This document shows, one piece after another, positions 8,553-25,558 of a stretch of 64,000 bases of DNA. This stretch comes from an uncultured Desulfobacter sp. (GTDB lineage: Bacteria > Desulfobacterota > Desulfobacteria > Desulfobacterales > Desulfobacteraceae), in NCBI GenBank assembly GCA_963665095.1, contig OY762069.1, positions 6,496,001 to 6,560,000 on the forward strand. Reading direction: 5' to 3'. The notes beneath the pieces were generated by a model, which was given only the letters and a program-made list of their open reading frames with translations, had not been told where the DNA came from and ran no database searches. Numbering within the stretch: the stretch's first letter is position 1; every line of letters starts with the position of its first letter. The translations under genes and the position numbers were made by a program.

Positions 8553-9878
8553 ATGGCTAAGCATGAAACTCCTTTACTGGACGAGCTGGAATCCGGCCCG
8601 TGGCCTAGCTTTGTTTCTGACCTGAAACAGCAGGCAGAAGTCAGAGCCAAAAACGAAAAAGGCGTTGAATTCCAGATTCCCCAGGATTGTGTAGACGATC
8701 TTCTTGGTGTGTTGGAACTCTCTTACAAACATGGACGTACCCACTGGAAACACGGCGGCATTGTTGGTGTATTCGGCTACGGCGGCGGCGTTATCGGTCG
8801 TTACTGCGACCAGCCCAAACTGTTCCCCGGTGTTGAACATTTTCACACCATGCGTGTAAACCAGCCCTGCGGTAAATACTACAGTACTGAATACCTCAGA
8901 CAGTTGACTGATCTGTGGGACTTCAGGGGCTCCGGAGTTACCAATATGCACGGCGCCACCGGCGATATCATCCTTCTGGGTACCACTACTCCCCAGCTGG
9001 AAGAAGTGTTCTGGACACTGACCCATGACTTCAACCAGGATCTCGGCGGCTCCGGCTCCAACCTGAGAACCCCTGCTGACTGCCTTGGCCAGTCCAGATG
9101 TGAATACTCCTGCTACGACACCAGCGCTCTGTGCCATTTCCTGACCAACGAATATCAGGATGAGCTGCATCGTCCGGCATTCCCCTACAAGTTTAAATTC
9201 AAATTTGACGGCTGCCCCAACTGCTGTGTTGCTTCCATCGCACGTTCCGATATGTCCTTCATCGGCACCTGGAAAGACGACATCCGCATTGATCAGGACG
9301 CTGTTAACAAATATGTTGAAAATGATCCCGCATATCCGGCCAACGCCGGTGCCCACAAGGGTAAAGACTGGGGCCCCTTTGACATTGAAAAAGAAGTTCT
9401 GGGACTGTGCCCCACAAAATGCATGAAGTTTGAAAACAAAACGTTGACCATTGATAATGCCAACTGCACCCGCTGCATGCACTGTATCAACGTAATGCCC
9501 CGCGCATTGAAGATTGGTAAAGAAACCGGTCTGTCCATTCTCTGCGGTGCCAAGGCGCCTATCCTTGACGGTGCCCAGATGGGTTCTCTGCTGGTTCCCT
9601 TCATCGAAGTTAATGCCGACAACGATTACGAAGAAATTACCGAAATCATTGAAAACGTTTGGGACTGGTGGATGGAAGAAGGCAAAAACCGCGAACGTCT
9701 TGGTGAGCTGATTATGCGCCAGGGATTCCAGAAACTTCTGGAAGTAACCGGCATTGAAGCAATGCCCCAGCATGTTGCCTACCCGAGAACCAATCCCTAC
9801 ATCTTCTGGAAAGAAGACGAAGTACCGGGTGGCTGGGAACGTGACGTTGAAGATTACAGAAAACATCACTTAAGATAA
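8553..9878 (+). CDS. dsrA: Dissimilatory sulfite reductase alpha subunit
   Basis: GPWPSFV, THWKHGGIVGVFGYGGGVIGRY, siroheme/Fe-S cysteines CLGQSRC and GCPNCC, ferredoxin motif CTRCMHC. Confidence 0.99.
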   Translation: MAKHETPLLDELESGPWPSFVSDLKQQAEVRAKNEKGVEFQIPQDCVDDLLGVLELSYKHGRTHWKHGGIVGVFGYGGGVIGRYCDQPKLFPGVEHFHTMRVNQPCGKYYSTEYLRQLTDLWDFRGSGVTNMHGATGDIILLGTTTPQLEEVFWTLTHDFNQDLGGSGSNLRTPADCLGQSRCEYSCYDTSALCHFLTNEYQDELHRPAFPYKFKFKFDGCPNCCVASIARSDMSFIGTWKDDIRIDQDAVNKYVENDPAYPANAGAHKGKDWGPFDIEKEVLGLCPTKCMKFENKTLTIDNANCTRCMHCINVMPRALKIGKETGLSILCGAKAPILDGAQMGSLLVPFIEVNADNDYEEITEIIENVWDWWMEEGKNRERLGELIMRQGFQKLLEVTGIEAMPQHVAYPRTNPYIFWKEDEVPGGWERDVEDYRKHHLR

Positions 9879-9893
9879 AAAGGGAGATATATA

Positions 9894-11042
9894 ATGGCAT
9901 TTATTTCTACCGGGTATAATCCCGCAAAACCGATGGAAAACAGAATCACCGACATCGGTCCTAAAGACTATAACGACTTTTATCCTCCTGTTATCGCAAA
10001 CAATAAAGGCAAATGGTCTCATCATGAGATCCTGGAACCCGGCGTGCTGGTTCATGTTGCCGAGTCCGGAGATGAAGTATATACCGTAAGAGTTGGCGGT
10101 TGCCGTCTGATGTCCACCACGCACATCAATGAAATTTGCGACATCGCAGATAAACATTGTGACGGGTATGTTCGTTTTACTACCCGTAACAACATTGAGT
10201 TCATGGTTGACTCCAAAGACAAAGTAGAACCGTTGAAAAACGATCTGGCTTCCAGAAAGTTCCCCGGCGGCTCCCAGAAATTCCCCATCGGCGGTACTGG
10301 TGCCGGTATCACCAACATCGTTCACACCCAGGGCTGGATTCACTGCCATACCCCGGCTACTGATGCTTCCGGTACCGTAAAGGTTACCATGGATGCCCTG
10401 TTTGACGAGTTCCAGAATATGAGACTGCCTGCTCAGCTTCGTGTTTCCATGGCATGCTGCCTGAACATGTGCGGTGCGGTTCACTGCTCTGATATCGCCA
10501 TCCTTGGTTACCACAGAAAACCGCCAATGCTTGACCATGAATACCTGGACAAGGTTTGCGAAATCCCGCTGGCCGTTGCTGCCTGCCCCACCGCAGCTAT
10601 TAAGCCTGCTAAAACCACCCTGCCTAACGGTACTGAAGTAAAATCAGTAGACGTTAAAAACGAACGCTGCATGTACTGTGGTAACTGCTACACCATGTGC
10701 CCATCCATGCCGCTGGCCGACACCGAAGGTGACGGTATCGTTCTTATGGCCGGTGGCAAGGTGTCCAACCGTATCTCCGATCCGAAATTCTCCAAGGTTG
10801 TTGTGGCCTTCCTGCCCAACGAAATGCCCCGCTGGCCGTCCATGACCGACGCCATCAAAAAGATTGTTAACGCCTACTCAAACGGCGCCAATAAATACGA
10901 GCGTCTGGGCGACTGGGCAGAGAGAATCGGATGGGAAAAATTCTTTACAGCTTGTGAACTTGACTTCACCCACCACCTGATTGACGACTTCCGTCAGCAG
11001 GCCTACATGAGCTGGCGTCAGTCCACTCAGTTTAAATTCTAG
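9894..11042 (+). CDS. dsrB: Dissimilatory sulfite reductase beta subunit
   Basis: [37 protein letters not shown]. Confidence 0.99.
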
Positions 11043-11082
11043 TTCTAAAAGTCAGAACTTGAGTTTAATAGCAATTTAATAT

Positions 11083-11126
11083 GGGTTGAACCGGGGCAAC
11101 ATTTTGTTCTCCGGTTCATCCCTTTC
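11083..11126 (+). terminator. Stem-loop between dsrB and dsrD (partial terminator or mRNA stabiliser)
   Basis: GGGTTGAACCGGGGCAAC-ATTTT-GTTCTCCGGTTCATCCC followed by a short TTTC. Confidence 0.55.
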
Positions 11127-11144
11127 AACTGAAAGGAGTCTAAC

Positions 11145-11405
11145 ATGGCAAGCGATCTTCTTAATGATAAAGAGGCTGCCCAGAAAGCAGTTGTTGACTG
11201 GTTGACAAAAAAAGCAGGCAGCAAAACCAAATTTTACATTAAAGATTTTTATAAAATTTTCCCCGATGATAAACCCCGGGAAATTAAAAAAGTCGTTAAT
11301 AAAATGGTAGAAGAGGAAATCCTTGAATTCTGGTCATCCGGATCTACCACAATGTATGGCCTTAAGGGTGCAGGCATCCAGCATGCCTCTGAGGGTGAAG
11401 CATAG
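11145..11405 (+). CDS. dsrD: DsrD
   Basis: KTKFYIKDF, LEFWSSGSTTMYGLKG; directly after dsrB. Confidence 0.97.
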   Translation: MASDLLNDKEAAQKAVVDWLTKKAGSKTKFYIKDFYKIFPDDKPREIKKVVNKMVEEEILEFWSSGSTTMYGLKGAGIQHASEGEA

Positions 11406-11423
11406 AAAGTATTTTGCTGATTC

Positions 11424-12902
11424 ATGATCGTCAGTAGGGAAAACGTCCCTGGAGTTGTCATTGCAGGACTTAAAGGGGGGTCAGGCAAGACAATAATATC
11501 CCTTGGGATAACTGCCGCGTGGACTGCTCAAAATATAACAGTGGCCCCATTTAAAAAGGGCCCTGACTATATTGATGCCGGCTGGCTTTCAAGGGCAGCC
11601 GGCCGCCCCTGTTATAATCTGGATACCTATCTTTGCACCCAGTCTGTGGTGCGCAATTCCTATTTTACTCATACCCGGTCCCGTGACATCGCCATGGTTG
11701 AAGGCAATCGCGGTTTATATGACGGCATTGATATGGATGGGACCACCTCCACCGGTGAGCTTGCCAAACTGCTTGATCTGCCGGTTGTTCTGGTTCTGGA
11801 CTGCACAAAATCCACCCGGACCATAGCTGCTGTTCTCATGGGTTGTGTTCAGTTTGATCCGGATATCCATATCGGTGGTGTTATACTGAACCGCCTGGCC
11901 GGCAAACGGCATGAAGGAAAAGTCAGGGCTAATATTGAGCGATACTGCAACATCCCGGTACTTGGTGCCTTGCCAAAGCTTAAGCAGGAAGATTTCCCCG
12001 AACGCCATATGGGGCTCGTGCCATCACAAGAACACGGGGAAGGTGACAGATCTCTTGAACGGGCCGGCCAGGTGGCGCATGATAACATTGATCTAGATGC
12101 AATTTATCGCATGGCCTTTGCCTATAAGGGGTGTGATCGGATGTCTGATGCCGGCCAGGGAGATGAAAATTCGTCGGCTTCCGAATCCTGTTTGAGTATT
12201 GATACCAAACCTATAGCCGCAGTGTTGGATCCCGGAACAAATGATCCTGTCACTATTGGTATCGTCAGGGATTCTGCATTTCAATTTTATTACCCGGACA
12301 ATATAGAGGCATTGGAATTGCTGGGGGCAAAGATCACATACATCAGCCCGCTTTCCCAGACAACCATTCCAGATGTGGATGCCATTTATATGGGAGGCGG
12401 ATTCCCCGAGACTCACGCAGCCCAGCTTTCGTCAAACACGTCTTTTCTGAGTGCATTAAAAACATTGTCCCGGAAAGGCCTTCCCATTTATGCCGAATGC
12501 GGCGGGCTGATTTTTCTGGGTGAAAGTATCTGTCTCGACCACTGTGTTTATCCAATGACAGGTATCCTTCCAATACGGTTCGGTCTATCTTCCCGCCCCC
12601 AGGGGCACGGATACACCGAAGTTGAAGTGGTCAACGACAACCCCTTTTATGAAAAGGGAGAGATATTACGGGGGCATGAATTCAGATACTCCAAGGTGCT
12701 TTCCATTGATTTTGAGAATAGCGCCATGGCTTTTAACATGGTTCGGGGCAAAGGAATCCTTGAGAAAAAAGATGGATTTTTCAGGGACATGACTTTTGGT
12801 ACCTACACTCATATTCACGCCCTTGGGTCCCTTTCCTGGGCCCCGTCTCTCATGGCCAGGGCCAGGGCCTTTAAATCTGCCCGTGCACAGGCAGATCTTT
12901 AG
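11424..12902 (+). CDS. dsrN: Siroheme amidase (cobyrinate a,c-diamide synthase family)
   Basis: GGSGKT, FKKGPDYID, EGNRGLYDG, ERHMGL, GGGFPE, YAECGG, GHEFRYS; located after dsrD. Confidence 0.9.
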   Translation: MIVSRENVPGVVIAGLKGGSGKTIISLGITAAWTAQNITVAPFKKGPDYIDAGWLSRAAGRPCYNLDTYLCTQSVVRNSYFTHTRSRDIAMVEGNRGLYDGIDMDGTTSTGELAKLLDLPVVLVLDCTKSTRTIAAVLMGCVQFDPDIHIGGVILNRLAGKRHEGKVRANIERYCNIPVLGALPKLKQEDFPERHMGLVPSQEHGEGDRSLERAGQVAHDNIDLDAIYRMAFAYKGCDRMSDAGQGDENSSASESCLSIDTKPIAAVLDPGTNDPVTIGIVRDSAFQFYYPDNIEALELLGAKITYISPLSQTTIPDVDAIYMGGGFPETHAAQLSSNTSFLSALKTLSRKGLPIYAECGGLIFLGESICLDHCVYPMTGILPIRFGLSSRPQGHGYTEVEVVNDNPFYEKGEILRGHEFRYSKVLSIDFENSAMAFNMVRGKGILEKKDGFFRDMTFGTYTHIHALGSLSWAPSLMARARAFKSARAQADL

Positions 12903-13359
12903 CAATCTCCTCATAAAGAAGATCTACCCAGTGTTGTGCTTTTGATTCCGTCATCTCCATTCCATCAAGAATCGACTGCCAGTTACACTCTTTTGAAATG
13001 GGGCAGGAGGAATCTATGCCCAGTATGTGGTGGTTTATAAAGTCATAGGGAAAAAGCCTGCAAATCAACGGCCGGGTCTCTAAAGGGAGCAGGCACCCCA
13101 TGGCAGAGGCCAGGCAGCATTGTTTGTCATCCGTTCTTTTCAGTACTCTGACTCGGTTTCCCTCAGACATGATCAGGGGCAGCCAGCAGGTGTCATAATC
13201 CGGTTCAATATCTGATAAAATCGGGGGCTCGTAGGTGTAAAAATCTGAATGTTTCAGAAAGCCGGAAATACGCACGATATCTCCGGAGGTAAGGTAAATC
13301 TGGTATCCCTTACAGCAAGAGTGGCCCAGACTTGCGCAGGTCGCACAAGGCGTAACCAT
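12871..13359 (-). CDS. YkgJ-family cysteine-cluster (Fe-S) protein
   Basis: CATC....SCC, CCL....GC.L..RPLICRLFP, CP. ATG 13359 has GGAG upstream. Confidence 0.8.
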   Translation of the reverse strand: MVTPCATCASLGHSCCKGYQIYLTSGDIVRISGFLKHSDFYTYEPPILSDIEPDYDTCWLPLIMSEGNRVRVLKRTDDKQCCLASAMGCLLPLETRPLICRLFPYDFINHHILGIDSSCPISKECNWQSILDGMEMTESKAQHWVDLLYEEIAKDLPVHGQI

Positions 13360-13470
13360 ATAAAACTCCAAAAACAGTTAAAAGCTGCGAACCAGTCAAC
13401 GAACCGGTTCGGTTTCTTGTCGTACAAACTGCAAAATTCAACAAAAAAAAGGTTGAAATCAACATCCCTC

Positions 13471-13518
13471 GGATCCCTGATCGGACCTCTGATCAGACCA
13501 CTAACCGGATCACTAAGA
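13471..13518. repeat. Four degenerate 12-bp tandem repeats
   Basis: GGATCCCTGATC / GGACCTCTGATC / AGACCACTAACC / GGATCACTAAGA. Confidence 0.55.
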
Positions 13519-13534
13519 TCCGTTGGAAAAGGGC

Positions 13535-14806
13535 TTATCCATCTTGGGGAATTAGGAAAATGCCTTGGCTGTTCGTCTTGACGGCCACCCGGGGCAGCGG
13601 CTTGATGAACTGCTGACGAAGGCTGTAAGTGTAAGCCCCTTGGGCAGGTATCATGAGAATGTCCCCTTCTTTTATATCTGAACCCAAATAGGCGAATCCC
13701 CAGACATCGTGGGGGGTGCATAGGGCGCCCAGGATATGGCATGGTTTTTCGGTCAGGCCCGGTCGCGTGAGGTTGAGTACCGGACAATAGTCGACTTCAT
13801 ACCGTTCCCAGCCGATGGTGTTGGTACCGGCATCTGTTATCACAAGATCGTGGGCTTTCTGGTCCACCACCTGGATAAGAATGTGCATGGCATCATTACA
13901 GATCCAGCGCCCGGGTTCAAAGCAGATACGGCAACGGGCAACTGGAAAGATGGCGTCCTTGATGGCCTGGGACAGTTTTTCGGCAAAAATATCAATGGAG
14001 ACGGCCGGATCTATGGTGTACTTTCCGGACAGGTCGGACAACAGCCATTCTCCCTGGTCGGGCCAGTAACCCCCGCCAATATCAATAAATTTCAGGTCGT
14101 TTAAAAAATCAGCCGGCATGGAGGCAAGAATATTGCCTAACTGCTTGATAAAAGAGACCTGTCTATCCGGGTTCAGATTCCATGAGGAATGAAACTGAAG
14201 GCCCTGGAACTCCAGGCCATCCGTGGCCTGTATCTTTTTGTAGGCGACAAGCAGATCCTGGGCGGCGATGCCGAATTTGCGCCACAACCCGTTTGGGTTG
14301 TTGTTCAGCCGAATTCCCACCCGCATGGTACTGTTCGTTCCATCAAGTATGGATGCCAGGCGATTGAGCTCGCCCAGGCTGTCCAGAAGAATCACCACCC
14401 GTTTTGGATGGTGCAGGGCAAGTTCCAGCTCCTGATCTGTTTTTCCCGGGCCACTGAATATAATGGACCGGGCACCCAGATCCAGGGCACACTTAAGTTC
14501 CATGCCGCTGGAAACGTCCAGGCCGAATCCTTGTCTTAACAGCGTTTTTGATAAATATGGCAGATTGTTGCTTTTCATGGCGTAGAAAAAGGCCGTATCC
14601 GGCAGATACTTTCGGAAGGCAGTCATGAACCGGTCTGCCTTTTGGGCAAGGACATCTGCTTCCAGAACATACAAAGGAGAACCGTATTGTTCCGCCATGT
14701 TAAGGTAAACCTCTTTATTCTGAAAATAGGGAGTAACAAAGGCTCGGACCGATTTTTCGCTGAGTTCGGAACGGCCTTCGGGAATCTGCAGGTTTTTGGT
14801 CAGCAT
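13535..14806 (-). CDS. PLP-dependent fold-type III (Orn/Lys/Arg/DAP) decarboxylase, substrate unknown
   Basis: YGSPLYV, FYAMKSN (PLP lysine), DVSSGME, FSGPGK, KFG, DIGGG, FEPGR, GALCTPHD, GAY. Confidence 0.9.
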   Translation of the reverse strand: MLTKNLQIPEGRSELSEKSVRAFVTPYFQNKEVYLNMAEQYGSPLYVLEADVLAQKADRFMTAFRKYLPDTAFFYAMKSNNLPYLSKTLLRQGFGLDVSSGMELKCALDLGARSIIFSGPGKTDQELELALHHPKRVVILLDSLGELNRLASILDGTNSTMRVGIRLNNNPNGLWRKFGIAAQDLLVAYKKIQATDGLEFQGLQFHSSWNLNPDRQVSFIKQLGNILASMPADFLNDLKFIDIGGGYWPDQGEWLLSDLSGKYTIDPAVSIDIFAEKLSQAIKDAIFPVARCRICFEPGRWICNDAMHILIQVVDQKAHDLVITDAGTNTIGWERYEVDYCPVLNLTRPGLTEKPCHILGALCTPHDVWGFAYLGSDIKEGDILMIPAQGAYTYSLRQQFIKPLPRVAVKTNSQGIFLIPQDG

Positions 14807-16110
14807 GCCTTGTCCAGTTCCAGTTCCATTTCAATTTCAATGCGTTTTGACAATAACAGACATTCAGTTTCAAGGTAGGTGGTCCGGTCCGGTTCGATGA
14901 TCATATGGCCCAGCAGCCAGGAATCATAATCCTTGGGCGGCAGGGTGACCATATGGCCGGGCGCGTGGATCAGATGGACCTTTTTCACCCGTTTATCACC
15001 GGTCAGAGCATCTGTGTTGATCTGTTTTAAAATCCCCTCTTTACGTGCATGAATCCGGTATGCCACCCATGGCTTGTATGGCACCATTTTTTCATGTTTC
15101 CAGGGAATGCCGGCTGCCGCATCTATGGCCATACCCAGCATATCAAAGTTGCCGGCCTCCTTGAGCAGAAACGGCAGGCAGTCACCTCCGGGCCGCGGGG
15201 TCATCTCAATGAGTACAGGGGTGTTGCCCCTTATGATGAAATCCACCATACAGATTCCTGTGCGGATACCAAGAGCCCCTGCCGCCTTTGAAAGAATTTC
15301 TGCCAGGCCGTCATGGTGGTTCGGGGCCAAATCGTTATGGTTGCCCTGGTTTGCATCTGTACAAAGGGCATACCCTGAAATGGTGCCAAAAGGGCGGTTG
15401 TCCATTTTGATCTTCCGGGTTTTACGAAGTATGACCGCTTTACCATTTTCCAGAAGGAAATCGCAGCTGTACTCAGGACCCGGTATCCACTCTTCCGCCA
15501 GCATCCGGTAGGTGCCGGCATCTGTGGCTCTGAACAGCGGGTTGGCAGATCTCTCCTCAAGGCCGGTTGCGATGGTATCAAAAGCCGTGCTGCATTCCCT
15601 TCGGGTCCGGCATTTAAATACCAACTCACTGCCCGACCCGCAAAACGGTTTAAGGACCAGACCCTGGGGGGCGGTTTCCAAAAATGCTGTCACCCCGGTA
15701 ATATCCTTTACCGGTAGCGTTCGCGGGCAGGGGATCTGGTGTTCGTGCCATAACTGTTTACAAAGATATTTGTCCCGGCAGTTTTTGACCGCGGTCAGAC
15801 TTGGGTATGGCAACCCGAAGCGGGCTGCCAGTACGGAAGCTGTTTCCATGGACTCACAGTCAAAGCAGGCAATGCCGGCAAGTTCAATGCCACAGATTTT
15901 AAGATGCGTTGTCAAAGCCGTTTGCACAGCGTCAATATCTGTGATCTGGCATAATATCTCTTCCCGGTTCCCGGGGCAGGGCTCTTTGGACTTCTTGCGT
16001 ATATCGGGATCTGTCAGAAAAAGTGCCGCTCCTGGACGAGTCTGTCGAATCCAGTCAATGTAGTCGCAGGTGGTCCCTACCACAAGCACTTTTTTGTTCG
16101 GATCGGTCAT
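14800..16110 (-). CDS. ATP-grasp ligase (L-amino-acid ligase-like)
   Basis: NCRDKYLCK, VLKPFCGSGS, EEWIPGPEYS, IEMTPRPGG. Start set at ATG 16110, just after the GNAT stop. Confidence 0.88.
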   Translation of the reverse strand: MTDPNKKVLVVGTTCDYIDWIRQTRPGAALFLTDPDIRKKSKEPCPGNREEILCQITDIDAVQTALTTHLKICGIELAGIACFDCESMETASVLAARFGLPYPSLTAVKNCRDKYLCKQLWHEHQIPCPRTLPVKDITGVTAFLETAPQGLVLKPFCGSGSELVFKCRTRRECSTAFDTIATGLEERSANPLFRATDAGTYRMLAEEWIPGPEYSCDFLLENGKAVILRKTRKIKMDNRPFGTISGYALCTDANQGNHNDLAPNHHDGLAEILSKAAGALGIRTGICMVDFIIRGNTPVLIEMTPRPGGDCLPFLLKEAGNFDMLGMAIDAAAGIPWKHEKMVPYKPWVAYRIHARKEGILKQINTDALTGDKRVKKVHLIHAPGHMVTLPPKDYDSWLLGHMIIEPDRTTYLETECLLLSKRIEIEMELELDKAC

Positions 16111-16117
16111 ATCCCTA

Positions 16118-17083
16118 TCAAACAGCCTTACGGTCATAGTGTTCCTCTTGATGTGCAGCCGGAAAGGCTTTTGTGTGGATCTCATATGAGGGTCGGGGGC
16201 TCAGGCGGAACCGCTGCTTCCAGTTGAAACTGCCGCACAGAAAGTCCACAGACTCCAGCCGGTTATGACAGGCCCACTCCAGGTGGTGGAGATTAATTAC
16301 TTTGGCAATACCGGGAAAATCCGCATGTGTACCGCCGGCTACAACCATATAGGTGTTGTTGAACACCACGCCCATGTCAACTGCCGCCACTGTCCCATCC
16401 ACGATGGCGGTGGTGATCCGCAGCATGCCCATGCCCTTGAAAAATGCGGCCAGTTGTTCAAATGATCTGTAAAACCGGGCATCGCTGAAATAGGAGTCTG
16501 ATGTAAAGGCTGTCATGTTCAGGCGGAACATCTCGGTGAGATCAGGATGGTGGTTATACCGCCAGGTCAGATTCTGGGTTTCGATCTTTTTTACGTCGGC
16601 TTTCAGTTTTTTCCTGGTTTTTCCAGGGAAGGTCAGCCAGAAGTTGTCCATGGAAAAATCATAGAGACGCGGGTAGAAAAGGTATCCGGTTTCATCCAGG
16701 GCAGCCTGTTTCACTGTTTCCAGGATCCGGGATTCCCGCATATAACGCAGATGTAAAGGCCCGGGAACTGACTCACACAGGGCGTTGAATACATCGGGGT
16801 CATCTGCAATGATCCGGTTTTGTTCCAGCCAGGTTTTGCCTTTCCATGTCTCCCCGGGAAAAAATACATATTCACCGGTCTCTTCGTTAAGGCTAAGGGG
16901 CAGAAACCCCACAACTTTGCCAGCCCGTTCTGCGATGTGGAAACTTAAGGGCCGTTTAAAGGTGTTATGAAAACACTCTCTTACCGCCCAAAGATCAAAT
17001 ATGCAGTCCACAGGCCAGTATTGTTCAAATGCCTTGCGGCACAGTTCCGGATCTTCGATGGTGGTAATCTTCATTGCCGCCAC
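16118..17083 (-). CDS. Long GNAT-fold acyl/aminoacyl transferase (Acetyltransf_6/FemAB-like)
   Basis: VVGFLPL, KTRKKLKA, G..AAVD, PGIAKV, VDFLCG..WKQRF pattern typical of double-GNAT proteins. Confidence 0.75.
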   Translation of the reverse strand: MAAMKITTIEDPELCRKAFEQYWPVDCIFDLWAVRECFHNTFKRPLSFHIAERAGKVVGFLPLSLNEETGEYVFFPGETWKGKTWLEQNRIIADDPDVFNALCESVPGPLHLRYMRESRILETVKQAALDETGYLFYPRLYDFSMDNFWLTFPGKTRKKLKADVKKIETQNLTWRYNHHPDLTEMFRLNMTAFTSDSYFSDARFYRSFEQLAAFFKGMGMLRITTAIVDGTVAAVDMGVVFNNTYMVVAGGTHADFPGIAKVINLHHLEWACHNRLESVDFLCGSFNWKQRFRLSPRPSYEIHTKAFPAAHQEEHYDRKAV

Positions 17084-17473
17084 CTAATGCCGAAGGGTTA
17101 CGTTGATGTGGCAGCTTTTTCCGCCAAAATAGTTTTGTGCAAATTCACGCACCACTTCAGGATCATATACCTTGCAGGAGAACACATCCAGGTAGGTGGT
17201 ATTGCTCTGGTTGGCAAAATGAGCGGAGATCAGGGATGTCTCAATGAGCTGAACCATTGAAAATCCGGCTACTTTCTCATCTTCGCCAAAGTGGACCACC
17301 TGGGTCTCACCAAACCGTTTCATTTCGATCAGGTCACACAGTTCCACAACAAATTTTTTGATTAATTCCGCATCCCTGATTTTTTCAGGATCACAGTCAT
17401 AAATGTCAATGGCAGAGGCAATGCCCCAAACTTCAGGTGCGGTGTCAAGTTGGATTACGTTTGCAGCGGTCAT
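17084..17473 (-). CDS. S-adenosylmethionine decarboxylase-like pyruvoyl proenzyme (divergent)
   Basis: IDIYDCD, HFG, GFS...LIETSLISAHF, YLDVFSCK; 129 aa; AAAGGAG RBS. Confidence 0.85.
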   Translation of the reverse strand: MTAANVIQLDTAPEVWGIASAIDIYDCDPEKIRDAELIKKFVVELCDLIEMKRFGETQVVHFGEDEKVAGFSMVQLIETSLISAHFANQSNTTYLDVFSCKVYDPEVVREFAQNYFGGKSCHINVTLRH

Positions 17474-17501
17474 GTAGATTCTCCTTTAAAAGCGGTGCGC
17501 C

Positions 17502-17663
17502 CTACCATTTATCTCTGGTGTCGGTGGGTCGCTTGGGTTTTTTGTTCATTTTTTTTCGGCGTTTCTGGTCTTCCTGCTGGTCCTCCCAGTCGTACTCTTC
17601 GTCATAGCTCTCTTTGAACCGTGGGCTTTTACTCTTGTTACGGCCGATTTTTTCCCTATTCAT
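17502..17663 (-). CDS. Unannotated 53-aa highly charged peptide, first gene of the sigma-54 operon
   Basis: My translation: MNREKIGRNKSKSPRFKESYDEEYDWEDQQEDQKRRKKMNKKPKRPTDTRDKW. AGGAAAGGA directly upstream of the ATG; it fills the space between the promoter and the AdoMetDC-like gene. Confidence 0.7.
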   Translation of the reverse strand: MNREKIGRNKSKSPRFKESYDEEYDWEDQQEDQKRRKKMNKKPKRPTDTRDKW

Positions 17664-17734
17664 GGGTCCTTTCCTTTTTGGTTGTTTACCAGCGGTATTG
17701 CCGGAAGGTGTGGATTCAACTCATGACCCCTCTT

Positions 17735-17751
17735 AGCAACCAGCGTGCCAA
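17735..17751 (-). promoter_or_regulatory. Sigma-54 (-24/-12) promoter
   Basis: Minus strand TTGGCACG-CTGG-TTGCT matches TGGCACG-N4-TTGCW exactly, and a sigma-54 activator gene is adjacent. Confidence 0.88.
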
Positions 17752-17934
17752 GACATAAAAAAAAATTTTCCCCGCAAATACAGGTTGTTCCAAAAATAAA
17801 AGATATATTTGTAGACGGAATACTGAATTTAATAGCAATATTTTACTTAAAACTAAATTATCGGAAAAATTATACTTGAATGGGTCGTTCAATTCCTGTA
17901 TTAAGATCAATCAGTCTCCATATTTAATAGGAAG

Positions 17935-17947
17935 AATCAAAATATTG
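17935..17947 (+). promoter_or_regulatory. Candidate IHF site
   Basis: AATCAA-AATA-TTG matches WATCAANNNNTTR, in the AT-rich region between the sigma-54 promoter and the activator gene. Confidence 0.35.
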
Positions 17948-18024
17948 AAGTCTGATATCTATATATTATGTGTATTTCAACAAACAAATAATCAGAAATA
18001 TTTTACTGAAAATGGAGTATCCCC

Positions 18025-19446
18025 ATGCTGATTCGACTGGCATGCGCCATTAAAGAGAAAAATATCCTTACTCAGCTTTCAAACAGAATGGAAGAGCAGG
18101 ACGTCCAGCTCCAGTTTTTTAAGCCAACAACGCTTTCGTGGCAGGCTCTTGCCAGAAGTTGTGCGGATGTCTTTATTGTCAGCAGTTCTGCAGTACCAAA
18201 ACCTGTGGAGTCCAGCATCTCTTTGCTCAATGAACTGCCGGAGTCGCCCATGACCATTGTTTTGCATAACCGGGAGTCATCTGAAGAGCATGCCAACCTG
18301 CTGGCGGCCGGTGTTGATGTGGTGCTTTATTCCGGTATCTCAACGGACAGCCTTTTAGAGGCCATTGACACAACGCTGGAGTCCCGGCGGCAGTTCTACT
18401 ATTCCGAACGCTTTGACCGGCGGGGACGGTTTCTGCCCCGGCTTAACGATTTTACCTCCAACAGCCGTCAGATGCAGGTGTTTCTTGATGAGACCCGGCA
18501 GGTGGTATCCAGTGATGCCACAATCCTGCTGTTAGGCGAAACAGGTGTGGGCAAGGAGCATCTGTCCAAAGCCATACATACGGACAGCCACCGGTCCACA
18601 GGTCCCTTTATCGCCATCAACATGGCCGCCATTCCGGAACAGCTCATGGAAAGCGAACTGTTCGGCCATGAGCAGGGTGCGTTTACCGGAGCGGTGCGTT
18701 CCCGGCGCGGAGCCTTTGAAATGGCCCACGGCGGCACCATTTTTCTGGATGAAATAGGGGAGATGCCCTTGCAGATGCAGACCAAACTGCTCAGGGTACT
18801 CCAGGAACTTGAATTTACGCCTGTGGGCGGTGAGAAACCGGTGTGGGTGGATGTCAGGGTCATTGCAGCCACCAATAAAGATCTTGAAAAGGAGATTGAA
18901 AAAGGCACCTTCCGAAAAGATCTTTACTACCGGTTAGGGGTGATCACGCTTACACTTCCGCCCCTGAGAAAAAGAAAGGAGGATATTCCCTCCCTGGCCA
19001 ACCATTTTCTGACCATGAACCAGCAGAAATTCGGCCGGAATCTCAAACGCTTTTCTCCCCAGGCCATGGAGGCCCTGTGCCGGTACGAGTGGCCGGGAAA
19101 CATCCGGGAACTCATGAATGTGATTGAGCGGGCCGTGCTGCTCTGCAAATCAGATACCGTGGGGCTGACCGAACTGCCGACGGTTTTTCATCACCCCCTG
19201 CCCGCAACAGGCAACGGGCATGTGTCCGGCTTTCCTTTCCCCCAAAAGTGGGAGTCCATGACTCTGCCTGAGGTCAAGGAGGCGGTGTATGACCGGGTGG
19301 AGGCCCAGTACCTTGCCATGGTCCTGAAAAAAACAAAAGGCCGGATCAATGAAACCGCCCAGATTGCCGGAATCCATCCCAGGGGGCTTTATGCCAAAAT
19401 GAAAAAACTGGGACTGGACAAGGCTGATTTTAAACTTCAAGGATAA
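18025..19446 (+). CDS. Sigma-54-dependent enhancer-binding protein with degenerate receiver domain
   Basis: GETGVGKE, ESELFGHEQGAFTGA, FLDEIGE, DLYYRL, WPGNIREL, C-terminal Fis-type HTH. Confidence 0.95.
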   Translation: MLIRLACAIKEKNILTQLSNRMEEQDVQLQFFKPTTLSWQALARSCADVFIVSSSAVPKPVESSISLLNELPESPMTIVLHNRESSEEHANLLAAGVDVVLYSGISTDSLLEAIDTTLESRRQFYYSERFDRRGRFLPRLNDFTSNSRQMQVFLDETRQVVSSDATILLLGETGVGKEHLSKAIHTDSHRSTGPFIAINMAAIPEQLMESELFGHEQGAFTGAVRSRRGAFEMAHGGTIFLDEIGEMPLQMQTKLLRVLQELEFTPVGGEKPVWVDVRVIAATNKDLEKEIEKGTFRKDLYYRLGVITLTLPPLRKRKEDIPSLANHFLTMNQQKFGRNLKRFSPQAMEALCRYEWPGNIRELMNVIERAVLLCKSDTVGLTELPTVFHHPLPATGNGHVSGFPFPQKWESMTLPEVKEAVYDRVEAQYLAMVLKKTKGRINETAQIAGIHPRGLYAKMKKLGLDKADFKLQG

Positions 19447-19457
19447 CCACTGTTAAT

Positions 19458-20048
19458 ATGTATTCTCCATTTCATTATCAGATTTCAGAGTATGACTGCG
19501 TTCCTGCGGCGCTTACCAATGCAGTTTCTTTCCTTTTTCACAGAAAGGAGATTCCTCCCATGGTGATTCAGCACATTTATCTTTATTGCCTGGACACCGT
19601 GGGCCGGAATTGCCGGTTCGGCATCGGCGGCACCAGTAAGTATGCGGTTCGCCTGGTGGGCAACTGGCTGGACTCTTACAAAATGAAATCCTTTGCAGTG
19701 AAAACCCAATTTCTGGAGAAGGCGGCTGTGAATATGGCGCCGGGCGGGCAGATTGAAACCTGCCTTGAAGAGGGCGGTGTGGTGCTTTGCAATATTCTTT
19801 TAACCCCCCGGGACGAACACTACCTTATGATAACGGCCATGGATGATGAGTGGGTATATTGTTTTGATTCATACCGCCGGCAGTCCATCCGCGGTATGAA
19901 AGGTATGGCCCGGGTCATTGAACCTGAAGACGGGCGGGCCGCCAACCTGAAAATCAGGCGGGACTGGATTGGCCAGGATCAGGTGACGCGCTTTTGTCTT
20001 GGCCCCATGGATATGCGGGAAAGCCTTCTTGTCTGGCGGATATCCTGA
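19458..20048 (+). CDS. Putative papain-fold cysteine peptidase (C39-like)
   Basis: YQISEYDCVPAA (Q-x5-C), EHYLMI, VYCFDS: Cys-His-Asp order and spacing resemble C39 peptidases. Confidence 0.6.
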   Translation: MYSPFHYQISEYDCVPAALTNAVSFLFHRKEIPPMVIQHIYLYCLDTVGRNCRFGIGGTSKYAVRLVGNWLDSYKMKSFAVKTQFLEKAAVNMAPGGQIETCLEEGGVVLCNILLTPRDEHYLMITAMDDEWVYCFDSYRRQSIRGMKGMARVIEPEDGRAANLKIRRDWIGQDQVTRFCLGPMDMRESLLVWRIS

Positions 20049-21066: not shown

Positions 21067-23616
21067 TCAGTTTTTGTATTTTGAATTCAGATAATCCAGG
21101 ACCTGTTGGGGGGAGGTCAGATTGATCACTGCCTGGGCCATCTCTCTGGCTTCCGACATGGACACATTGCCCACCGTTTTTTTTACATCAGGGATGGCAG
21201 GGGCGTTCATGCTCAATTCGTCCAGGCCCATGCCAACCAGGATCGGGGTGACCAGGGGATTGCCGGCAAGCTCCCCGCACATACCCACCCAGATTCCTGC
21301 CTGACGGGCAGCGGCAGCTGTCTGGGACACCATGCGCAGCACCGCAGGGTGCAGGGCATTGGTGAGGTGGCTTACCTTGCGGTTGCCGCGGTCCGCACCC
21401 ATAACATACTGGGTGAGATCATTGGAGCCGATGCTGAAAAAGTCAGCCTCTTCAGCCAGCTGGTCTGCAACGGCCACAGCTGACGGCACCTCAATCATGA
21501 GTCCCACTTCAATAGTGTCATCAAAGGGGATTTCAGCGTCCGTCAGCTCCTGTTTCACTTCATTGAGCATGGCTTTGGCCTTGCAGAATTCCGGCTGGCT
21601 GCTGATCATGGGGAACATGATTTTGATATTGTGCCCGTGGCTGGCTTTTAGTATGGCCCGCAGCTGGGGTTTGAAAACCTCGGGATGTTCAAGGCAGAAC
21701 CGGATACCCCGCAGGCCCAGAAAGGGGTTCTCCTCCGGTGCCATGTCCAGATAAGGGATAAATTTGTCTCCGCCCACATCCAGGGTACGGATAACCAGGG
21801 GCTGTTTCCCCATGGCTGCGGCGACTTCGGCATAGGCTGCCAGCTGTTCCTCTTCTGTGGGTGCCTGGGACCGGCCCAGAAACAGGAATTCGGTTCTGAA
21901 AAGCCCCACGCCGTCAGCGCCATAATCCAGAGCCACCCCGGTATCAAAGGGGCCGCCGATATTGGCTGCAACCTCAATGGTCTTCGCGTCTTTCCCCTTT
22001 GTCACTGCCGGTTGCAGGGCCTGGGCTTTGAGCGCATTCTGCCGGGATATCCACCGGTCACGCCGGGACTGTAATTCAGTCAGTTGTACCTGGGTGGGCC
22101 GGGGCCAGACCTGGCCGTTGGTGCCGTCCAGCGCAACCACAGTGCCTTCAGGTACGTCGCCTAATCCCTGGGGCAGGCCTACCACGGCGGGAATACCTAA
22201 GGCTTTGGCCACAATGGCGCTGTGGGAGGTGGCGCCGCCTTGTTCGGTGCAGAACGCCAGAACTTTTTCAGGATTCAGGCGGGCCGTATCTGATGGGGTC
22301 AGCTCGAATGCAAATACAATTGAGGGGTGCAAGAAATCCAGGCCGGGAAGCGCCTCCCCCAGCAAATGCCGCAACACCCGTCTGCCCACATCAATGACGT
22401 CTGCCGCACGTTCCCGAAGATATGGGTCTTCCAGTCTGCGGTATTCATCTGCCATGGCCTCAATGGCGTTGCTCCAGGCAGATTCTGCGTTTATTTTCCT
22501 GTTAATCACCTGATCTTTTACCCCATCCAGCAGGGCCGGATCATCCAGAAACATTTGCTGGGCATCAAAAATGGCGGCCTGGTCAGCACCGATCTGCCGG
22601 GCAGCCTGATTTTTCAAAAGATCAAGGTCCTGTTTGGCCTGGTCAAGGCTGCCCTGGAATTTTTCCCATTCCACATCACCATTTTCTATTAAAGTTGCAG
22701 TAACTTCCGGCATCCGGGAAGTGTAATGGGCCACAGGGCCGATGGCAATGCCGGGTGAGGCTGGAATGCCGGTTAAAATACCATCGGCATTCTTTTGGGG
22801 GGCAGACGCTGGTGGGGCCTCGGATGATTGGGGGATGTCTGAATTGTCCTCCTTATCACCAAATTTATCTTCAGCCAGAACCTGGATGGCATCCAGTGCG
22901 GCCCGGGCATCGGGTCCCGTTGCCTTGACAACAATGCTGTCATTGTGGCCTGCGCCCAGGGTGGCTACCTGGTTGATGCTTTTTGCATTGGCGGTTTTTT
23001 CGCCTTTAGCCACTGTGATATTGGATTGAAACCGGCCGGCGGTTTTAACGAAATTGGCTGCAGGCCTGGCATGCAGGCCCATACGGTTGAGAATGGTAAT
23101 GGTGATCTGAACTGTGTCGCCAGGCGGCTCAGCCGGGCAGGGTGAGTCTGCATCAGGGTTGGAACCCGGCAGGCGTGTCATATCTGATCCGGGTGGCACC
23201 CCCATGGCCGGTGACAGCTGATCCATTTTGGCGGAAAGTGCTCCCATGGCTTCATGCATCACCTGCTCAAGGGTGCTGCCGATGGACGCTTGAACTGCTG
23301 CGGCCACAGCACCTTCCACAATGGGGGCGGCACATAGTTTTACCTTTTCCTGCTGTGCCGGCTCAAGAAATTCCAGTGCCATCTCTGCACTGAGAAGTGC
23401 CGAACCCAGGTCCATGAGCACCAGTACCCCGTCTTCACTGAAAACAGATTCAATTGCGGCCTGAACTTTAAAGGCATCCGTGCCAATGGGATTTTCCGGA
23501 TCATCTATGCCGCCGGCAACGGCAATCTGACCCTGTCCCCGGGTCATTTGTTCTGCCAGCTCTTTTACGCCCTGGGCCAGGGCGGCACTATGGGAAACTA
23601 TGACAAGACCAACCAT
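21067..23616 (-). CDS. dhaM: Multidomain PTS phosphotransfer protein: EIIA(Dha)-HPr-complete Enzyme I
   Basis: MVGLVIVSHS and DLGSA (DhaM EIIA), GLHARPA (HPr), TSHSAI (EI His), GLFRTEFLF, RTLDVGGDK, NDLTQY, GMCGE (EI C-terminal domain). Confidence 0.92.
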   Translation of the reverse strand: MVGLVIVSHSAALAQGVKELAEQMTRGQGQIAVAGGIDDPENPIGTDAFKVQAAIESVFSEDGVLVLMDLGSALLSAEMALEFLEPAQQEKVKLCAAPIVEGAVAAAVQASIGSTLEQVMHEAMGALSAKMDQLSPAMGVPPGSDMTRLPGSNPDADSPCPAEPPGDTVQITITILNRMGLHARPAANFVKTAGRFQSNITVAKGEKTANAKSINQVATLGAGHNDSIVVKATGPDARAALDAIQVLAEDKFGDKEDNSDIPQSSEAPPASAPQKNADGILTGIPASPGIAIGPVAHYTSRMPEVTATLIENGDVEWEKFQGSLDQAKQDLDLLKNQAARQIGADQAAIFDAQQMFLDDPALLDGVKDQVINRKINAESAWSNAIEAMADEYRRLEDPYLRERAADVIDVGRRVLRHLLGEALPGLDFLHPSIVFAFELTPSDTARLNPEKVLAFCTEQGGATSHSAIVAKALGIPAVVGLPQGLGDVPEGTVVALDGTNGQVWPRPTQVQLTELQSRRDRWISRQNALKAQALQPAVTKGKDAKTIEVAANIGGPFDTGVALDYGADGVGLFRTEFLFLGRSQAPTEEEQLAAYAEVAAAMGKQPLVIRTLDVGGDKFIPYLDMAPEENPFLGLRGIRFCLEHPEVFKPQLRAILKASHGHNIKIMFPMISSQPEFCKAKAMLNEVKQELTDAEIPFDDTIEVGLMIEVPSAVAVADQLAEEADFFSIGSNDLTQYVMGADRGNRKVSHLTNALHPAVLRMVSQTAAAARQAGIWVGMCGELAGNPLVTPILVGMGLDELSMNAPAIPDVKKTVGNVSMSEAREMAQAVINLTSPQQVLDYLNSKYKN

Positions 23617-23741
23617 AATTCTTTTTTCCTTTGTCAGCCCTGATTGCCGTCAACCTACCATTGGCTGCTGTGAACCAAACAGTATAAAAAGCCTTTACCC
23701 GGTTCCGGCGTTTGTCGTAAGGGCCCGGGTCGGTCTGTCAA

Positions 23742-24374
23742 TCAGGCCTCAAGCGTTTCTAAAAACGTTTTAAGCAATAGGCAGGAGGAGGTGGCACCCG
23801 GGTCCTGATGCCCGATGCTGCGTTCTCCCAGGTAGCTCGCCCGGCCTTTTTTGGCCTGAAGGGGAATGGTGGCTGAAAGCCCCGTTTCGGCAGCTGCTAC
23901 CCCGGCCTTCATCAGCGCCAGAGTATCGCTGCCTTTGGATAACTCTGTCTGAATGGTTTCCAGAACCGGAGCCCAGACATCATACATGGTTTTGTCTCCC
24001 ACCTGTGGACGGCCACGCTGGATAATCCCGTCAACACCGCCCTTGAACATGGCGTACAGATCATTGTCATCCAGCTCTTCCTTCCCGGGAGCAGCTGCTG
24101 CTGCACGCATGAAAAAGGTGCCGTAAAGCGGACCGCTGGCACCGCCAACACTTGAAATCAATGTCATGCCGGTCTGTTTTAAGATATTGCCGATGTCTGA
24201 ATCGGCCAGGCTGGGCAGCTTTTCCTGAACTTTTTTAAACCCCCGGGCCATGTTGAACCCGTGGTCTGCATCACCGATTTCAGCATCCAGCTGGGTGAGG
24301 TAGTCTTTGTTTTCCTGGATGACATCTGCTGATTTCTGCAGCCATGTGATGATTTGCTCTTTGCTGACACTCAT
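23742..24374 (-). CDS. dhaL: Dihydroxyacetone kinase subunit L
   Basis: GDADHG, GGASGPLYG, GDKTM, KGRASYLGERSIGHQDPGATS. Start set at ATG 24374. Confidence 0.95.
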   Translation of the reverse strand: MSVSKEQIITWLQKSADVIQENKDYLTQLDAEIGDADHGFNMARGFKKVQEKLPSLADSDIGNILKQTGMTLISSVGGASGPLYGTFFMRAAAAAPGKEELDDNDLYAMFKGGVDGIIQRGRPQVGDKTMYDVWAPVLETIQTELSKGSDTLALMKAGVAAAETGLSATIPLQAKKGRASYLGERSIGHQDPGATSSCLLLKTFLETLEA

Positions 24375-24490
24375 AGTTGCGCTCCGTAGAATATTAATTA
24401 GGGATGGTGGTACGGGTGCTATTATATCACCATGCACCAGCATCCCCAATCCTTATAAGGCATTAATTGTATCTAAACGCCGTATCGGTT

Positions 24491-25558
24491 TTATACGCCC
24501 CACCGAAGCCCCGGGGTGTTGACTGGTGCATCCCAGAATTTAAGGATCTCCTCGTCAGTCTTGAGCAGGGTAATGGAACAGCCCTGCATTTCCAGGGATG
24601 TAATATAAGGGCCGATCAGGTTGCGCACAATCTTGATGCCTTTGGCATCACATACCTCCACAAGCTTGCTGTAAACCGCGTAGAGCTCGGACAGAGGCGT
24701 TCCGCCCATGCTGTTGACAAAGGCAATCACTTCATCTCCTTTGGCAAAGGGCTTATCCGTAAGTGTTTTTTCTTCCCAGTCACCTTTCTGGGCATCCCAT
24801 TCACGCACAGTGCGGGTGTATGCTTCATCATCAATGATGGACAGGGCCATCTGTTCGGTGATCTCATCCACGGTTTTCATCTTGGTTCGTTCTGTACCCG
24901 GTTCTCCATGGATACCAATGCCCATTTCGATTTCATCCTCGGGCAGGTCAAAGGTGGGCTTCCCTGCTGCCGGTACTGTGCAGGAGGTCAGTGCCACACC
25001 CATGGAGCGGCCGTACTGGGAAACTTTCCGGGCAAGGTCAGCGCACTGTTCCAGGTCGTAGCCGGCTTCAGCAGCCGCGCCTACAATTTTTTCCACCAGT
25101 ACGGTGGTGCCCACGCCGCGGCGTCCGGCCGTGTAGAGACTGTCTTTTACCGCCACATCATCATCCACCAGGATGTTCTGCACTTTGATGCCGTCGGCAT
25201 GCACCATTTCTGCGGCAGTTTCAAAGTTCATGACGTCACCGGTATAGTTTTTCACCAGGAAGAGAACCCCTGCGTCAGAGGCAACTGCTTTGGCGCATTC
25301 GTACATCTGATCCGGTGTGGGGGAGGTAAAGACTTCGCCAGGGCAGGCACCATCCAGCATGCCCATGCCAACGAAGCCACCGTGCATGGGTTCATGCCCG
25401 GACCCGCCGCCGGAAATCAGTGCCACCTTTTTATTCGGAGCATCCGCACGGTATACAAAATGCGGATCAATTTTAACCGTGATTTCGGGATGGGCCTTGG
25501 CCACGCCTGCCAGTTGTTCTTTTACAACGTCGTCCACTGCATTAATGAGTTTTTTCAT
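24491..25558 (-). CDS. dhaK: Dihydroxyacetone kinase subunit K
   Basis: [32 protein letters not shown]. Confidence 0.96.

Follow-up and report, generated by a model that had tools for sequence, protein, structure and literature searches.

A stretch of 64,000 nucleotides from the genome of an uncultured Desulfobacter sp. (assembly GCA_963665095.1, contig OY762069.1, positions 6,496,001 to 6,560,000; hereafter the window), whose closest titled relatives are Desulfobacter species, contains a four-enzyme operon that probably makes a small amide-linked amino-acid conjugate of putrescine. An earlier note on this DNA had proposed an inducible amine-conjugation pathway composed of a small peptide, two decarboxylases, a GNAT, an ATP-grasp ligase and a YkgJ-type protein, together with a divergent activator and a peptidase. 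All the open reading frames (ORFs) it named were found in place, and the notion of a conserved, self-regulated amine-conjugation pathway is supported by the fixed gene order. This orphan pathway is real and widely conserved, is smaller than proposed, and is unlikely to be a system for a ribosomally synthesized and post-translationally modified peptide (RiPP): the unit consists of a pyruvoyl decarboxylase, a tandem GNAT, an ATP-grasp ligase and a fold-III pyridoxal 5'-phosphate (PLP) decarboxylase, in that order. Each enzyme family is known and the logic of a ligase combined with a decarboxylase has precedents. As the earlier note held, the combination does not correspond to a described pathway in the literature searched, which covered few subscription papers; a 2009 survey of ATP-grasp amidoligase neighbourhoods may mention this cluster.

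Conservation of the four-enzyme operon

The operon is encoded on the minus strand and comprises a predicted SpeDC-type pyruvoyl ornithine decarboxylase (17084..17473), the tandem GNAT (16118..17083 with a GTG start, or to 17074 with ATG), the ATP-grasp ligase (14800..16137 or to 16110, both ATG starts) and the PLP decarboxylase (13535..14806). The gaps of 0, 7 and -7 bp reported earlier between these genes hold if translation starts at GTG 17083 and ATG 16110, and become 9, -20 and -7 bp with ATG 17074 and ATG 16137. The Pfam families matched in the cluster are AdoMet_dc, Acetyltransf_6, ATP-grasp_4, Orn_Arg_deC_N and Sigma54_activat.

The earlier proposal was made to depend on co-location of these genes in other genomes, and co-located they are. 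In a scan anchored on the PLP gene (70 loci, each count covering only loci with enough flank), the ATP-grasp gene precedes the PLP gene in 65/68 loci, the GNAT lies upstream in 62/65 and a SpeD-family gene in 46/62, and a divergent activator is present in 39/55; a C39-like peptidase gene is nearby in 6/55 and a YkgJ gene in none of 62. By these counts the four enzymes are retained as members of the cluster, and YkgJ, as well as the peptidase as a core component, are not. A separate sample of metagenome loci anchored on the GNAT (the best 80 of 414) gave 55/63 for ATP-grasp, 36/42 for PLP, 49/64 for SpeD-family, 39/42 for activator, 4/38 for peptidase and 1/27 for YkgJ genes.

Among 61 related genomes the ATP-grasp gene occurs in 28 and a match to the GNAT profile in 31, and in an even sample of 401 Desulfobacterota genomes the PLP gene occurs in 21. 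Of these 21, 18 were inspected: 14 have all four in order, speD is absent from one, and contig edges end the remaining three loci. According to record titles, carriers include cultured Desulfobacter and Desulfospira strains, and loci are found in Ignavibacteriales, Hydrogenedentota, Pirellulales, Verrucomicrobiota, Spirochaetes/Treponemataceae, Krumholzibacteriota, Deferribacterales and Omnitrophota; the operon thus spans anaerobic bacteria of at least nine phyla including Desulfobacterota. No relatives of the GNAT or PLP profiles were detected in viral contigs, and plasmid sequences gave no match for a sister GNAT and PLP matches of only 25-28%.

The ATP-grasp and PLP genes are fused in two loci of one genome record set (L053, L074), and the GNAT and ATP-grasp genes in another locus (L099, P0123). 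A lone PLP gene was found in two genomes, both of which encode the GNAT and the ATP-grasp enzyme elsewhere. Partial forms also occur: L156, L161 and L163-L165 have the activator and the GNAT, with or without SpeDC, and no downstream ATP-grasp or PLP gene, and a spirochaete (G061; L116:6944-10302) has a SET-domain gene followed by ATP-grasp and PLP genes, with no GNAT detected. The SET-domain gene standing in place of SpeDC and GNAT suggests methylated product amines.

Promoter, enhancer and activator

The divergent sigma-54 activator is predicted to turn the operon on. A -24/-12 element, TGGCAC-N5-TTGCT (TGGCACGCTGGTTGCT), lies before the operon at 17735..17750 on the minus strand and, in line with the consensus promoter described earlier, is the sole exact consensus match in the window, with 0.0002 such matches expected per 400 bases of one strand. 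One-mismatch sites occur in the window at chance level (3 found, 3.43 expected), so that the weight of the promoter call rests on conservation: the motif is present in 35/41 loci with a divergent activator (0.2 expected) vs 1/19 without one. Upstream of the promoters, a putative enhancer palindrome, TCGGTA-N6-TACCGA, usually occurs twice between -90 and -150, with some 30-50 bp separating the copies. At least 9/12 positions agree with it in 26/36 distinct promoters (1.4 expected), although it was first noticed by eye in the same promoter sequences that were then counted. The two sites predicted in the window are a degenerate copy at 17861..17878, 128 bp upstream of the -24 element (8/12 of the consensus, 14.6 bits), and a second one at 17832..17849, 99 bp upstream (9.2 bits). 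With a matrix built from other genomes, without the window, the window promoter, scored with its pair of sites, ranked second of 478 sigma-54-like sites in the genome (23.7, vs 12.0 for the third).

The element, the enhancer sites and an activator carrying GAFTGA are consistent with a sigma-54-dependent operon. The activator gene (18025..19446, plus strand) is divergent from the operon, as the earlier note had it, and encodes GAFTGA at residue 218 behind an atypical N-terminal domain. This domain has no Pfam receiver match, 40/41 copies have Ser53 at what we take to be the position of a receiver's phospho-acceptor Asp, and no kinase gene recurs near the operon; the activator therefore likely senses a ligand directly. 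Regulators vary across loci, including divergent or same-strand activators, TetR and ArsR-like proteins. The enhancer motif offers a handle on the inducing signal. The top-ranked of the 478 sites, C1:6654367 (L383:8255-9124), lies before a DUF5698/DUF2179 membrane gene and is not conserved (at most 7.4 in 18 other homologous loci vs 27.4), so that a regulon link is unproven.

SpeDC and the supply of putrescine

The pyruvoyl enzyme was earlier taken for an S-adenosylmethionine decarboxylase (AdoMetDC)-like protein, a reading displaced by the SpeDC ornithine decarboxylase (ODC) signature that it bears. Its score with the AdoMetDC model TIGR03330 is 36.5 bits, below the cut-off of 75.65, and its central motif is unlike the AESH..HAWPE..AAVD type of fusion N-domains. 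Li et al. (2023, PMC10407285; text and Fig. S5 alignment) give Gln, Thr, Phe and Tyr as the residues diagnostic of SpeDC and prove that a SpeD1-SpeD2 fusion from Desulfotignum has ODC activity in its C-terminal domain. The window enzyme has all four (Q75, T79, F86, Y94) together with the processing residues S80, H85 and C100 of the class 1b AdoMetDC fold, as do all full-length cluster copies aligned. Its motif GFSMVQLIETSLISAHFANQSNTTYLDVFSC corresponds to GFSMTQLIETSLISGHFANADNTVYLDVFSC in the fusion of Desulfotignum phosphitoxidans, within the domain proven to be an ODC, and the window enzyme is 58-66% identical to fusion domains that are intact and 36-44% to those that are degraded. The same paper, the only one on speDC that the literature search turned up, sets speDC beside speD/speE, casdh/casdc or hss, and its main text mentions 'ATP-grasp', 'GNAT' and 'acetyltransferase' 0 times; the operon gives SpeDC a context beyond spermidine and homospermidine synthesis.

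The claim that no spermidine synthase is present does not extend to the genome, which encodes one at C1:2055975-2056844 (recognized by eye from sequence). The gene before it encodes a SpeD1 whose fused SpeDC domain is dead, the cleavage Ser being replaced by Ala (G000, C1:2054573-2057755, minus strand). The genome has only two alanine-racemase-fold decarboxylases and no OKR_DC_1 match, and the SpeDC of the operon is its only recognisable putrescine source, with no other recognisable ODC or arginine decarboxylase (ADC). Given this set of genes and the dead fusion domain, the operon SpeDC may also supply spermidine synthesis. The run at C1:2054573-2057755 continues with a small GNAT and a DUF2156-like tandem GNAT, recurs in G718 (L412; labels by eye) and is possibly a second polyamine-acylation unit.

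Gene loss supports putrescine as the product of speDC and points to it as the input of the pathway. Six Desulfobacter-type genomes, belonging to three clades of a concatenated tree and showing at least two breakpoints, have deleted speDC from the operon, in which the other three enzymes persist. An alternative ODC that carries a GPTCDS motif and, among solved structures, is closest to lysine/ornithine decarboxylases occurs in 6/6 of them vs 1/10 speDC-intact genomes of the same core clade, counts that come from 30 of 76 matches inspected. A class of 100-107-bit matches without assigned identity is present in both groups; two of the intact genomes have a long ADC and two are 82-90% complete. 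Outside this group an ODC ortholog (at least 54%) is present in 7/15 speDC-less vs 1/30 intact genomes, and among the further speDC-less ones three have weaker ODC-like matches and two a 646-aa ADC-sized gene. The alternative ODC genes have no enhancer and varied contexts, and thus lie outside the regulon. A decayed operon was seen in L317 (G032), with a broken speDC and an internal deletion from the GNAT into the PLP gene; this genome has an intact SpeD-SpeDC fusion.

The two amide-forming enzymes

The GNAT has no sequence-level match to any solved structure and was assigned from a structure model with a predicted local distance difference test (pLDDT) score of 91.7. The top Foldseek matches were Sbb17, FemX and Sba18, and VIA-align gave Z 17.7 for FemX (root-mean-square deviation 4.7, 282 aligned), 17.3 for Sbb17 (3.9, 260) and 16.4 for FemA, vs about 14.5 for MprF/DUF2156 and at most 14.0 for acyl-CoA tandem GNATs. 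The model has the double-GNAT fold of FemX-type aminoacyl-tRNA transferases. According to a review (PMC12945691), enzymes of this type, which include FemX, Orf11/Sba18/Sbb17, DhpH/K and PacB, share a basic, tRNA-binding helix and one Lys that follows an aromatic residue; the window family has a basic helix at 151-165 and an invariant W285-K286, which by motif may correspond to FemX K305 and DhpH-C F328-K329. The GNAT is thus predicted to be an aminoacyl-tRNA-dependent amide synthase, its predicted acceptor, a diamine, setting it apart from those enzymes. A large sister family (P0158-P0268, P0190, P0194) extends to bacteria of the candidate phyla radiation and includes one protein fused to a RimI-like domain and another fused to a YkgJ-like one (P0194, pairwise E 0.001).

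The ATP-grasp enzyme (model pLDDT 90.3) is nearest, by profile and fold, to the L-amino-acid ligases BL00235, RizA and BacD and to PDB 4dim. It has the three-domain ligase fold with the ATP and oxyanion residues and an E-x-x-x-R-x-G-G motif; K123, K163, E215, E311, R315 and G317 are invariant, and LAL_C2 is weakly matched in its homologs. It differs from these ligases in its 13-18% identity and in being partnered or fused with a decarboxylase. Glutathionylspermidine synthetase/amidase combines ATP-grasp amide ligation onto a polyamine, by an ATP-grasp subfamily presumably unlike that of the window, with a papain-like amidase; the peptidase of the window is separate and optional.

The PLP decarboxylase

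The best solved relative of the PLP enzyme is FslC/FigC, followed by diaminopimelate decarboxylase (DAPDC), BtrK and SbnH. K78, H206, GGG, EPGR, C363 and Y392 are invariant in the family, and the Cys is followed by T-P-H. According to PMC7857480, the acidic residue after the catalytic Cys binds the side-chain amine of the substrate in ODC, ADC and DAPDC, and in FigC it is replaced and a His at Cys+3 serves a larger, acylated substrate. The window enzyme has Thr at the first position and, like FigC (H357), His at Cys+3; its family has a Trp aligned with SbnH W309 and conserves E334, R335, E337 and D339. These features point to a long substrate that would carry no charge close to its alpha-carbon and might have an amine far from it; E334, E337 and D339 in the specificity-helix region would suit such an amine. 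Membership of the LysA, ODC, ADC or carboxyspermidine decarboxylase families is contradicted by C363-T-P-H and by scores below the curated cut-offs (lysA 150 vs 298 bits, nspC 23 vs 409). The N-citrylornithine decarboxylase model NF041039 of FigC (FslC) is likewise missed (102 vs 500 bits) and the partner is an ATP-grasp enzyme, not an NIS synthetase (one that makes siderophores independently of nonribosomal peptide synthetases); the proposal that the enzyme works like FigC is unaffected by this score.

Two described systems come close. In the FigA/FigC (FslA/FslC) pathway of rhizoferrin, and similarly with SbnH, a ligase and an alanine-racemase-fold decarboxylase act on an N-acylated amino acid (PMC7857480); a non-acidic Cys+1 and a His at Cys+3 are further points of likeness. 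The window operon differs in lacking an NIS synthetase, a siderophore receptor and an exporter, in having an ATP-grasp ligase, and in adding an ODC, a FemX-like GNAT and control by sigma-54 or TetR. In butirosin biosynthesis, BtrK turns a tethered glutamate into 4-aminobutyrate and carries GPLCTPED where the window enzyme has GALCTPHD, its partner BtrJ being presumably an ATP-grasp enzyme; the operon loci have no recurring acyl-carrier protein and no aminoglycoside genes.

Proposed pathway and alternatives

It can be hypothesized that the pathway proceeds in four steps. SpeDC very probably decarboxylates L-ornithine to putrescine, and the FemX-like GNAT would transfer an amino acid from aminoacyl-tRNA to a putrescine amine, as suggested by its fold and by loci with SpeDC and GNAT only. 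The ATP-grasp enzyme would then make a second amide with a unit that keeps its alpha-amino and alpha-carboxyl groups free, in the preferred version Asp or Glu attached via the side-chain carboxyl, and the PLP enzyme would remove the remaining alpha-carboxyl to give a beta-alanyl or 4-aminobutyryl arm, comparable to the arm formed on a carrier protein by BtrJ/BtrK. What results would be a polyamine analogue of the spermidine or homospermidine type, joined by amide bonds and obtained without S-adenosylmethionine. This exact order of steps is tentative.

A broader reading, which we regard as speculative, is that long, S-adenosylmethionine-independent, amide-built polycations are produced when a tRNA-dependent transferase and an ATP-grasp enzyme add amino acids to putrescine and a dedicated decarboxylase uncovers a new terminal amine. 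Such 'pseudo-polyamines' would form a new class, widespread in anaerobes. Their control would fall to a sigma-54 activator that senses a ligand and has an enhancer of its own, and in Desulfobacteraceae a peptidase would deconjugate them. Little is charted of the polyamine chemistry of sulfate reducers and of other anaerobes that are uncultured, and this cassette, a small and testable orphan pathway, would join tRNA-dependent and ATP-dependent amide formation with two decarboxylases, a combination not found in the literature searched; a new class of metabolites and enzymes useful for making amides may come from it.

Several observations weigh against a putrescine conjugate built in this way. 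No alternative putrescine source was found in 3/15 of the speDC-less genomes outside the Desulfobacter-type group (G716, G733 and G232, of completeness not established), and kin are non-independent in the speDC/ODC counts, so that Fisher values are overstated. The pattern of loss does not prove that the other three enzymes consume putrescine, and the swap of speDC for an ODC could mirror the cell's need for spermidine instead. The GNAT keeps a G-x-A-K stretch, RNQGIAK in one sister protein, which we take to resemble an acyl-CoA-binding loop, making an acyl-CoA donor possible. The solved relatives found by fold searches are all distant (10-18% identity), and substrates are therefore unreadable from them. 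L-amino-acid ligases normally activate alpha-carboxyls, a habit that fits an order of the FigA/FigC type better than the third step proposed here.

Such an order underlies the closest alternative, which leads to the same class of product and is counted within the favoured one: the operon would hold two parallel modules, the ATP-grasp and PLP enzymes acting like FigA/FigC to ligate an amino acid to the delta-amine of ornithine and then decarboxylate it to aminoacyl-putrescine, and SpeDC and GNAT separately making another aminoacyl-putrescine or capping the second amine. FigC is the best solved relative and has the His at Cys+3 in common, ordinary alpha-carboxyl ligase chemistry suffices, and the modules come apart in nature, the ATP-grasp and PLP genes being fused in L053 and L074 and present without the GNAT in L116/G061, and the GNAT occurring without either in L156, L161, L163, L164 and L165. 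This arrangement leaves the tracking of speDC loss by an alternative ODC unexplained, unless a housekeeping need explains it, and the citrate-binding residues of FigC are not evidently kept; it is held to be a minority possibility.

Macromolecule decoration, by which putrescine and amino acids would be added to a peptidoglycan precursor, polysaccharide or lipid and no free metabolite would be made, is unlikely. FemX/FemA and MprF folds do work on envelope precursors, NCBIfam models of PEP-CTERM-associated FemAB and decarboxylase proteins match weakly, far under their cut-offs, and the operon has no exporter. Against this, no recurring glycosyltransferase, flippase, mur or carrier-protein gene was seen among the neighbour clusters of 98 loci, as read from N-termini with no library scan, the operon moves as a self-contained cassette whose regulators change, and the small-molecule enzymes Sbb17 and Sba18 rank equal to FemX.

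The earlier note had left the product open between a small metabolite and a tagged, RiPP-like peptide; the former is preferred here, and the status of the peptide bears on this choice. The 53-aa small protein (17502..17663, minus strand), of basic-acidic-basic composition, would be the first product of the predicted transcript and has a purine-rich ribosome-binding site. Its ratio of nonsynonymous to synonymous substitution is 0.08 over 16 Desulfobacter-type copies, 44/71 variable columns being at third positions, and matches in the ESM Atlas were only unnamed ones under 0.9. The sequence data thus support a real gene, albeit an optional one: in the 58 operons that have the GNAT, ATP-grasp and PLP genes together, an automatic filter picked out a peptide-like ORF in 28 and inspection by eye in about 33, none of them outside Desulfobacterota, and at eight distinct promoters the distance to the first enzyme gene is just 104-173 bp, with no peptide ORF between. 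Peptide sequences are far more divergent than the enzymes and have no core common across families. A RiPP is therefore unlikely; neither a precursor conserved with the enzymes nor a co-conserved dedicated leader peptidase was found, and the role of RiPP precursor is not upheld.

A wider form of tagging is more doubtful still than decoration: putrescine or aminoacyl groups would be attached to this peptide, or else to a translation or stress protein, and the C39-like peptidase would take them off or mature them. The peptide is under purifying selection and leads the predicted transcript, all 21 peptidase-bearing relatives carry the operon, DksA genes recur nearby, a SET-domain gene takes the place of the GNAT in L116, and sister GNATs are fused to RimI-like and YkgJ-like domains. 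These points are set against the absence of the peptide from about 25/58 operons, its divergence, and four draft genomes with the same peptide type in which the peptidase was not found. Last, a route to an ordinary polyamine or to putrescine/cadaverine with accessory ligases would account for two decarboxylases and for SpeDC being the sole recognisable putrescine source of the genome, and is nonetheless very improbable, as the PLP enzyme has no acidic residue for free diamino acids and scores poorly with nspC, speA and lysA, secondary amines are beyond the reach of amide-forming ligases, and speD-speE lie elsewhere in the genome.

Peptidase, YkgJ protein and neighbouring genes

The putative C39-like cysteine peptidase (19458..20048, plus strand), near the operon in too few loci for the core role once assigned to it, looks like an accessory protein that may act as an amidase for the conjugate, in analogy to glutathionylspermidine amidase. 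Q8, C14, H121 and D137 are invariant in its family; the window protein has no Pfam match, and 11/26 family members match Peptidase_C39_2 weakly (best E 0.0016), which makes the C39 label a weak one. The gene is present in 21/61 relatives, all operon carriers, is missing from 7/28 operon carriers and occurs in 2/15 further operon genomes. A one-to-one pairing of peptide and peptidase held among 28 relatives and failed in four further genomes, which are drafts. In several Desulfobacteraceae (L034, L035, L062, L067) the activator and the C39-like gene have an amidohydrolase gene in their vicinity, a second candidate for product turnover.

The YkgJ/CxxCxxCC protein (12871..13371, minus strand; Pfam CxxCxxCC match below cut-off) follows on the same strand, as noted earlier, but its membership is not borne out by the PLP-anchored loci, from which it is absent; in the window it lies 163 bp past the operon. 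Its homologs occur in 13/61 genomes, unlinked to the operon, and the closest ortholog (71%) lies beside dsrN in G006, without the operon; the window protein is probably a bystander, with one linked case (L156) and the GNAT-YkgJ-like fusion P0194 leaving a loose link. A terminator search of the stretch separating YkgJ from the PLP gene gave no call (fold z -1.0). Unlinked homologs (L229-L231, L233, L234) have their own sigma-54-like element just upstream, and the window copy shows none.

Directly adjoining the cluster at 8553-12902 (plus strand) is a dsr-like block, presumably dsrA-dsrB-dsrD-dsrN-like, whose dsrN-like product scored as CobB-like in a family model scan. The YkgJ gene overlaps the 3' end of dsrN by 32 bp, an arrangement repeated in G006. 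On the other side, at 21067-25558 (minus strand), lies an operon that we take to be dihydroxyacetone-kinase-like, with a DhaM-HPr-enzyme I fusion, and that is near the cluster in 2/97 loci. Just past the PLP stop codon, positions 13441-13535 hold five GATC sites in 95 bp, vs 0.47 expected from the genome rate. Elsewhere, DksA/TraR genes recur beside the operon (L308, L309, L314, L315 and 16 loci of cluster 5); four of them lie immediately upstream of speDC and share its strand. DEAD-box helicase, small OB-fold-like, zinc-ribbon and RimK-like genes (labels by eye) also recur nearby.

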